A stretch of DNA of 64,000 nucleotides. Source: an uncultured Phycisphaerales bacterium (GTDB lineage Bacteria; Planctomycetota; Phycisphaerae; Tepidisphaerales; Tepidisphaeraceae). Both the position numbers and the translations under genes were made by a program. The stretch is from assembly GCA_963758525.1 (NCBI GenBank), contig CAVWVQ010000003.1, positions 3,616,001 through 3,680,000 of the forward strand. Direction: 5' to 3'. The notes below the pieces were generated by a model. The model ran no database searches, had not been told where the DNA came from, and saw nothing but the letters and a program-made list of their open reading frames with translations. Below, piece after piece: positions 42,092-43,168 of the stretch. How positions within the stretch are numbered: position 1 is the stretch's first letter; the number at the start of each line of letters is the position of its first letter.

Positions 42092-43168
42092 ATGTCAGAT
42101 GAACTGAAACAAATCGATGCTTTGCAGGATCAGGCGCTTGCGGAATTGGCGGGGATTTCAACAGCCGACGGGCTGGAGAAATTTCGCATCAAATACCTCG
42201 GCGCCAAGGGGCTGCTGAAGGATGCGATGACGCTCCTCGCGAAAGTGCCGCCCGACCAGAAGCGCGCGGTGGGGCAGCGCGTCAACGGCGCGAAGGAGAA
42301 GATCACCTCCGCTTTTGAAGCGGCGCGCCAGACGATTTCCTCCGGCGCGGCCGATGTCGGGCAGGCGGTGGACGTGACCGAGCCGGGCAGGGAATTGAAG
42401 GTGGGGAATCGCCATTTGCTGATGAAGGTCGTCGATGAGCTGACAGAGCTTTTCGGGCGAATGGGTTTCGCGATCGCGTCCGGCCCGGAAGTGGAAGATG
42501 AATTTCACAACTTCGTCGCGCTGAACATTCCAGAGAGCCATCCGGCGCGCGATCCGCTGGATAATTTTTATCTGGAAGGGACAAAGGGACAAAGGGACGA
42601 AGGGACAAAGGGGTCGCGATCGGCTTCACCTAGTCCCTCTGTCCCTTTGTCCCTTTGTCCCTTGCCCTCCCTTCTTCTCCGCACTCAAACCAGCACCGTT
42701 CAGATTCGCGTGATGGAGCAGCAGAAGCCGCCGATTCGCGTGGTAATTCCTGGGCGGGTGTATCGCCCGGACACGACCGATCAGACGCACCTTCCCATGT
42801 TTCATCAGCTTGAAGCGCTCGTCGTCGATCGCAACGTCACGATGGTGGATCTGAAGAGCACGATCATGCAATTCGTGCACGCCTATTTTGGTCCGGAGAC
42901 GAAAGTTCGGTTTCGCCCCAGCTTCTTCCCATTCACCGAGCCCTCGGCGGAGGTCGACGTCTGGTTCGAGGACAAGGGGCGTTGGATCGAACTGGGCGGC
43001 TGCGGCATGGTCCACCCCAACGTCTTCAAAAACGTCAATATCGATCCCGAAGTCTATTCCGGCTGGGCCTTCGGGCTGGGAATCGAACGGATCGCCATGC
43101 GGAAGTACGGAATATCGGACATCAGGTACTTCGTCGAGAATGACGTGAGGTTTTTGCGTCAGTTCTGA
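42092..43168 (+). CDS. pheS: Phenylalanine--tRNA ligase alpha subunit with a repeat-derived in-frame insertion
   Basis: HPARD, LRTQTS, PGRVYR, FHQLE, FRPSFFPFTEPS, ELGGCGMVHP, GWAFGLGIER. Confidence 0.97.
   Translation: MSDELKQIDALQDQALAELAGISTADGLEKFRIKYLGAKGLLKDAMTLLAKVPPDQKRAVGQRVNGAKEKITSAFEAARQTISSGAADVGQAVDVTEPGRELKVGNRHLLMKVVDELTELFGRMGFAIASGPEVEDEFHNFVALNIPESHPARDPLDNFYLEGTKGQRDEGTKGSRSASPSPSVPLSLCPLPSLLLRTQTSTVQIRVMEQQKPPIRVVIPGRVYRPDTTDQTHLPMFHQLEALVVDRNVTMVDLKSTIMQFVHAYFGPETKVRFRPSFFPFTEPSAEVDVWFEDKGRWIELGGCGMVHPNVFKNVNIDPEVYSGWAFGLGIERIAMRKYGISDIRYFVENDVRFLRQF
42575..42673. repeat. Inverted 8-mer tandem hairpin (RAAGGGAC)n/(GTCCCTTT)n inside pheS
   Basis: gaagggac aaagggac aaagggac gaagggac ... 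gtccctct gtcccttt gtcccttt gtcccttg. Confidence 0.9.

Follow-up and report, generated by a model that had tools for sequence, protein, structure and literature searches.

The pheS gene of an uncultured Tepidisphaeraceae bacterium carries an in-frame hairpin of repeat units, which probably gives rise on translation to an unstructured surface loop that the enzyme tolerates and is likely the gene-less form of a probably mobile, IVS-like cassette in which a four-helix-bundle gene is enclosed by repeat arms. The gene lies in the window, by which we mean the whole 64,000-nucleotide stretch of DNA that was analysed, and the genome it belongs to (G000, 6.47 Mb, 90.9% complete) has a single pheS match. 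Repeat-coded loops as such are already known from the precedents of Rickettsia palindromic elements (RPEs) and intragenic REPs. The present case would move repeat DNA in an essential gene from a curiosity to a testable process.

The insert in pheS

The open reading frame scores 326 bits against TIGR00468 (cut-off 237), and the six remaining matches of G000 to the PheS query are repeat peptide and not pheS. The features of the locus are as follows.

42092 to 43168, plus strand: pheS, phenylalanine-tRNA ligase alpha subunit, 358 residues in a single open frame
42575 to 42670, plus strand: repeat-derived in-frame insert in pheS, 96 nucleotides, 32 codons, stop-free
42575 to 42614, plus strand: purine-rich left arm of the insert, four RAAGGGAC units (42575 to 42606) and a partial fifth
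42615 to 42630, plus strand: unique spacer of the insert (hairpin loop), 16 bases
42631 to 42674, plus strand: pyrimidine-rich right arm of the insert, four NNGTCCCT units (42631 to 42662) and a pyrimidine tail
43178 to 43275, plus strand: intergenic left arms of other units (GGTGATT, AAACGTG), just past the pheS stop

An earlier note on this DNA had described 32 repeat-derived residues in frame in pheS, encoded by four RAAGGGAC units, a short loop and four NNGTCCCT units. The codons from 42575 to 42670 confirm both the residues and the intact frame, and the units are as described, with the partial fifth unit and the pyrimidine tail in addition; the end given in the note, 42673, takes in one extra Leu codon. 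The final bases of the right-arm tail fall within conserved Leu codons. The segment from 42565 to 42685 folds with −66.5 kcal/mol (z −8.36), and none of 200 shuffles folded as well. A short arm complementary to the left arms beyond the stop codon lies near 43450-43465.

The E. coli PheS (3pco) aligns on either side of the insert without gap-filling residues and has a loop of 5 residues at this point, as short as the note had stated, and T. thermophilus PheS has approximately 20 residues there. Since the loop is also already long in the family, the net gain over its kin is less than 32 residues. In an AlphaFold model built from 59 sequences residues ~162-193 have no secondary structure and a pLDDT of 46-58, while the rest is mostly above 90 and the model matches solved PheS chains. 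The insert is predicted from this model, the structural check that the note had proposed, to form an unstructured surface loop.

Nothing in Rfam matched the insert at gathering score, with sub-threshold miRNA-hairpin matches only, and a promoter and terminator scan at the insert gave no signal beyond shuffles. The ends of the insert are inverted repeats and it has no coding capacity of its own, a trait of MITEs; the GTAG/CGTC tag of REPs is absent from both ends. By eye, and with no close empty site for comparison, we saw no target-site duplication. In three public runs of soil DNA the share of the words present reached 0.21 at most, and no piece in them spanned the insert.

Tandem-word hairpins in the genome and in the loops of relatives

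We scanned the 6.47 Mb of G000 for dimers of 38 frequent words of 7, 8 and 10 bases and found 752 word clusters, 237 of them with both orientations. Clusters of the latter kind numbered 84 in 2 Mb of real sequence against 0 in its block shuffle, and the purine-rich arm comes first in 205 of the 237. The pheS insert fits this family of arms in having a purine arm of 7-8-base words, a spacer, a complementary arm and a dispersed unit, which is also found around a PF05635 gene. Its unit forms 24 left and 28 right arrays in G000 and eight compact hairpins, five of those in coding frames. Two further elements lie in the window.

18836 to 19015, no strand assigned: intergenic sister hairpin of a GGCAC unit, a clean hairpin (z −16.2)
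62881 to 63200, no strand assigned: intergenic composite element with GGCAC and GGGAC left arms and a GGCAC-type right arm

The GGGAC units of the composite element are confined to its left arm. The likeness to the elements at 18846 and 62881 that had been noted thus extends to the hairpin design and not to sequence identity.

It could be argued that the array arose within pheS itself, out of flanking codons multiplied through slippage and template switching, and the outermost seven pairs of the hairpin do include the conserved Leu codons. The many arrays of the same unit elsewhere in G000 speak against this origin, as do its recurrence in the pheS loops of other genera (G111 and G156) and the words found in relatives, which are unrelated to the flanks; we consider it highly improbable.

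Using our own gene calls from a hexamer model, in which confident genes cover 70% of the sequence, we placed 27 of 537 arrays, 8 full hairpins among them, within open frames that are coding to the left and right of the array; about four look like chance. A stricter pass gave ten in-frame arrays, in PheS, MurJ, an FtsX-family permease, NadA, PurL, a POR-family oxidoreductase (IOR), a methyltransferase, a disulphide oxidoreductase, DnaE2 and one unknown protein. Most arms in the in-frame arrays contain no stop; of the abundant AAGACGCG family, which has no stops either, no clear in-frame copy was seen. TGAACCC arms are read as sense codons in 23 of 23 cases in PheS homologues, against stop triplets in 276 of 291 genomic arrays, which we do not count as evidence because the comparison is circular for called proteins. 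Frame-breaking inserts, a sign of splicing, were absent among 21 candidates in G000; all of these are, by eye, spacers between co-directional genes, four being judged from one flanking ORF and a stop codon before the arm.

The PheS loop has 5 residues in most other families examined, against 6-66 in the Tepidisphaeraceae, where the median is 22 in a sample biased to long loops. We compared 75 distinct pheS loops of the family clade, about 35 taken as they came and 40 from loci picked for long open frames. Clear tandem arrays of various units are present in 14 of them, two of the 16 flagged at the outset (L015 and L264) having been dropped as GC-rich codon runs, and all 14 are a multiple of three in length and free of stops. 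The single off-frame loop among the 75 has no array. The array-bearing loops are scattered over a quick tree, which together with named neighbours assigns G000 to the Tepidisphaeraceae. Both other genomes of the genus carry units different from that of G000, so that three genomes have three different words in this loop, and unit, length and peptide all differ; the sister genus has a loop of 10 residues. The best 120 PheS homologues include dozens with repeat-type peptides of many kinds, as judged by eye, and one with the unit of G000, the longest loop being 72 residues.

Equally long loops without tandem units occur in two relatives, of 38 residues in G023 and of 34 residues, coded by a REP-type hairpin, in G093. 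Neither resembles the insert, and we found no relative with an equally long non-repetitive loop aligning to it, which the earlier note had named as one of the results that would refute its reading. The 34-residue loop of G093 (L262, P0205) is coded by a GTAG-type palindrome dimer and is identical to a protein labelled Humisphaera borealis, so that a cultured species with a hairpin-coded PheS loop exists. In several genomes of the family (L044-L047) PheS belongs to a divergent, long-branched clade whose loop has 5 residues, which suggests gene replacement from outside.

These comparisons bear on two other readings of the insert. That it is an assembly artefact might be thought from the apparent one-base breaks elsewhere in the assembly (in dnaE2 and ubiD) and from the sole other member of its PheS cluster, which ends just before the insert; independent assemblies with inserts of the same design, and even of the same unit, at the same codon leave this a negligible chance. 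Alternatively the hairpin or its peptide may be kept for a function, either RNase III-dependent control of the pheS mRNA or a contact surface of PheRS. The stem is long and near-perfect, the loop is very often filled, and in the 23S rRNA IVS of Coxiella an analogous stem is described as cut by RNase III at the first heptamer repeat (PMC4990558). The differences in unit, length and peptide among three genomes of one genus count against a function, together with the 61 of 75 loops that have no clear array, several of them of only 6-11 residues, and we judge it very unlikely.

Other loops are filled in the same manner. Among five chosen relatives we found arrays in NadA (2 of 4), MurJ (1 of 5), IOR (3 of 5) and PurL (1 of 5 and 3 of 5 at two sites), with words mostly unlike those of G000. 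REP-type dimers likewise occupy the PheS and DnaE2 loops of relatives. Since these dimers and other palindromes fill the same loops, the PheS loop is not a special target; it acts as a general sink, admitting whatever keeps the frame, brings no stop and is tolerated by the structure. Refilling of the same loops with different repeats within one genus charts, in nature, which sites are permissive and gives a gauge of how much traffic of elements there is. The note had called the insert an independent, microsatellite-based case of repeat-derived protein sequence. The in-frame, repeat-derived protein sequence stands, yet in place of a single microsatellite case there is a dispersed family of arms, and the loops are refilled in relatives.

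Genes between arms and the nested cassette in dnaE2

A search of G000 for genes between matched arms gave five pairs of left and right arms with 250-2500 bases between them, of which one encloses a GxxExxY gene and none an evident transposase. G000 has four matches to PF13366 (GxxExxY) and eight to PF05635 (four-helix bundle). Tandem words lie on both sides of 9 of these 12 genes compared with 27 of 400 control genes, and the flanks pair in 8 of 12 compared with 20 of 400, each gene having its own word. The GxxExxY proteins are of PD-(D/E)XK type, going by the Pfam name PDDEXK_3, and the PF05635 proteins we take to resemble Avd, given a sub-threshold match to bAvd. At G000:C3:1855000-1855950 and C5:57600-58500 GxxExxY genes are adjoined by whole empty hairpins, one with a duplicated gene tail, which may record the entry of genes into hairpins or their exit from them.

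One PF05635 gene is nested within a gene for an error-prone DNA polymerase, dnaE2, identified by NF004225.

G000:C3:4377207-4377617, outside the window: PF05635 gene with pheS-type (GGGAC) arms, nested in dnaE2

The DnaE2 frame is stop-free across a 735-nucleotide insert, in which the PF05635 gene is complete in another frame. The order is left arm, four-helix-bundle gene, second left arm, spacer and right arm, and the arms pair around the inner gene in an IVS-like fold. The pheS insert and a dnaE2 arm share a stretch of 30 bases, which does not prove descent, as another array matches the insert exactly over 36 bases. Within one genome and its family, an in-frame hairpin that lacks a gene is found alongside loaded cassettes of both the intergenic and the nested kind. 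A one-base frame break downstream of the cassette in the dnaE2 of G000 we read as error or decay. The dnaE2 operon (G000:C3:4373500-4380500, L199) has four in-frame arrays in dnaE2, including the cassette, and one in an upstream imuB-like frame.

We took the 23 closest homologues of the inner gene (E 1e-25) from 141 genomes of the family; 19 sit in the DnaE2 loop and four elsewhere. All 19 dnaE2 copies are free of stops in the host frame, a total of 0 against 49.2 expected from synonymous shuffles, a comparison that overstates independence as the copies are related. The four homologues outside the DnaE2 loop have 1, 0, 3 and 4 stops in the corresponding frame. In the third frame the first 11 dnaE2 copies have 73 stops against 66 expected. 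All seven free-standing genes of G000 have at least one stop, with 17 against 19 expected. Among ordinary windows of 105 codons, 19% are stop-free in the host-equivalent frame, and 4-10% at the relevant GC3. The counts as a whole show that stops are selected against in the dnaE2 host frame. Median identity is 63% for the inner proteins and 31% for the host-frame peptides, so the inner gene is constrained as a protein and the host frame only kept open.

The hairpin could also be removed from the RNA or bypassed by the ribosome, in the manner of an intron, and the IVS-like fold of the loaded form agrees with this. Against it stand the purging of host-frame stops in dnaE2, the absence of any split gene in the 21 candidates and of an Rfam family at gathering score, and the intact frames of all 14 array-bearing pheS loops, in a set where 40 of the 75 loci were picked for long open frames. 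We hold this to be most improbable and favour translation of the insert.

Resolved dnaE2 alleles number 48, of which 14 are loaded (13 in frame, and that of G117 off frame) and 34 are short or have gene-less hairpins of many kinds, and loaded and unloaded alleles neighbour each other on the tree. The distances of inner gene and host are not significantly correlated (Mantel rho 0.20, p 0.15, n 14, short alignments), and the trees speak neither for nor against horizontal movement. One of the genomes with a nested cassette in its dnaE2 is G093, whose PheS loop is of GTAG type.

Searched with a host-frame peptide profile, 1.84 billion representatives gave 482 matches at E 0.001; a word-indexed search with the same profile gave 7 proteins, far below the full scan. 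From the best 150 of the 482 we scanned the 60 of at least 300 residues, excluding one repetitive protein, and 41 had a Pfam family: 10 with DNA polymerase III alpha domains, 25 DNA methyltransferase or restriction-modification proteins, 2 histidine kinases and one each of an amidohydrolase, a protein kinase, an intein and an RHS protein; none was PheS. Repeat-type peptides flank the match in most of the scanned proteins by eye, these being predicted proteins seen without their DNA. In P0017, P0018, P0108 and P0060 the alternate-frame peptide lies in a second DnaE loop, in histidine-kinase HATPase domains and in an intein.

It is also conceivable, although in our view unlikely, that the pheS element is translated and tolerated but never held a gene, its arms having spread by a route of their own through recombination or an unrelated enzyme, with four-helix-bundle genes settling in existing hairpins. 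No loaded cassette was present in the 75 PheS loops or the best 120 homologues, hairpins outnumber cargo genes by 237 to 12, mixed and unmatched arms are common in G000, and two of the GxxExxY/four-helix-bundle genes are those adjoined by whole empty hairpins. In contrast, every cargo gene is flanked left and right by a matched unit particular to it, far more often than control genes are, and the dnaE2 subfamily of cassettes keeps to one family of octamer words. We prefer the reading in which the pheS hairpin is a gene-less cassette.

Origin of the hairpin and comparison with known systems

In the mechanism that we propose, elements would arrive at many sites, and copies in coding DNA would persist only where a length divisible by three and stop-free words come together with a permissive loop as the site. 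Such a survival filter could account for the loops of PheS, NadA, MurJ, PurL, IOR and DnaE2 being refilled in lineage after lineage. The hairpin in pheS would be translated by read-through. A loaded cassette might lose its gene and leave a gene-less hairpin, for example through recombination between repeated left arms of the kind seen in dnaE2, where this event would yield a hairpin like that of pheS; as no pheS loop examined holds a loaded cassette, the step is not seen at the pheS site. The direction may also be the reverse, the hairpins being sites into which the gene is delivered. The best candidate for the cutting enzyme would be the GxxExxY nuclease-family protein, and the four-helix-bundle protein would be a likely partner that binds the arms.

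We put forward more tentatively, as a possibility that we would not yet call probable, that these cassettes are selfish elements of a class not yet described. With its gene, of the four-helix-bundle or GxxExxY kind, enclosed by tandem-word arms that pair with each other, such an element would home into hairpins and permissive loops, hidden by an open alternate frame of the host and without RNA or protein splicing, with one subfamily at home in the palm-finger loop of DnaE2 across many genera. Emptied arms would be the source of unexplained 7-8-base bacterial arrays and a steady supply of new loops in essential enzymes, and the pheS hairpin would be a footprint of the class. The link to four-helix-bundle cassettes would offer a concrete origin for bacterial heptamer and octamer arrays, and give a large protein family of unknown function a role outside rRNA.

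RPEs are dispersed palindromes found within housekeeping genes, whose reading frame they keep (Ogata et al. 2000, 2002, summarised in PMC10969869 and PMC3733652), and are defined in PMC10969869 as elements of about 150 bp encoding a conserved peptide. The pheS insert is likewise a dispersed multi-copy palindrome, in frame in a housekeeping gene, that adds a peptide segment, and the precedent drawn in the earlier note holds, the insert being independent of RPEs. Unlike RPEs, the pheS-type arms consist of tandem 7-8-base words in variable number around a unique spacer and have no conserved peptide; unit number, spacer and peptide vary between copies, and many unit families refill the same loop. 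The arms are also linked to gene-carrying cassettes, and the host is a free-living member of the Planctomycetota. Intragenic GTAG/CGTC REPs are described as in-frame dimers of 20-30 residues in dnaE2 and tRNA synthetase genes (Di Nocera et al. 2013, PMC3733652). The same source reports many in Opitutus terrae, a member of the PVC group, and its Additional file 3 may list pheS among the REP-decorated genes. The insert shares with them its in-frame position, and REP-type dimers share the two loops in relatives, yet it lacks the tag, its arms are periodic, and its probable partner genes are PF05635/PF13366 instead of RAYT. The pheS insert works like an RPE or an intragenic REP, yet is neither.

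Short-repeat arrays comparable to those of G000 are also found in cyanobacteria as STRR and SDR repeats. The heptamer arrays of Xanthomonas and Nostoc have about four units per arm, often in inverted pairs, with the G-rich arm close after stop codons and the C-rich arm close before starts, and the available parts of that account give no cassette or origin for them (PMC4692102). The words of G000 differ from these, and 7-, 8- and 10-mers occur side by side. In Coxiella, a terminal stem of the ORF-bearing 23S rRNA IVS encloses an S23p ORF with heptamers before its start, and RNase III cleavage is described (PMC4990558). The dnaE2 cassette similarly has a terminal stem around a PF05635 ORF, and tandem words. 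In contrast to the IVS, the cassettes sit in mRNA genes and spacers and not in 23S rRNA, the dnaE2 host frame is probably translated straight across the element without excision, and the pheS copy has no ORF. The loaded dnaE2 form is also a natural counterpart of OAFI, the synthetic overlapping alternate-frame insertion of genes (10.1101/2024.11.07.622342), with stop avoidance as its sole 'rent'; unlike OAFI it is bracketed by pairing repeat arms and recurs across genera. A full-text search, with most subscription journals outside its scope, found no paper that describes tandem-word hairpins within proteins of the Planctomycetota, and none that describes a four-helix-bundle gene nested inside an mRNA gene.

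Elsewhere in the window, a 23S rRNA gene (55039-58330, plus strand) contains a group I intron at 56926-57258 (RF00028, 65.3 bits, cut-off 50), with the 5S gene at 58544-58651. The region 47000-64000 gave no match to 16S rRNA, whose gene is therefore not linked to that of the 23S. In the ubiD-family frame at 36824-38287 (minus strand) the match is lost inside the C-terminal domain (profile positions 2-59 of 127) at an apparent frameshift, which may be a read error. A Uma2-family gene (PF05685, 46186-46935) is bracketed by two different REP-like palindrome dimers.
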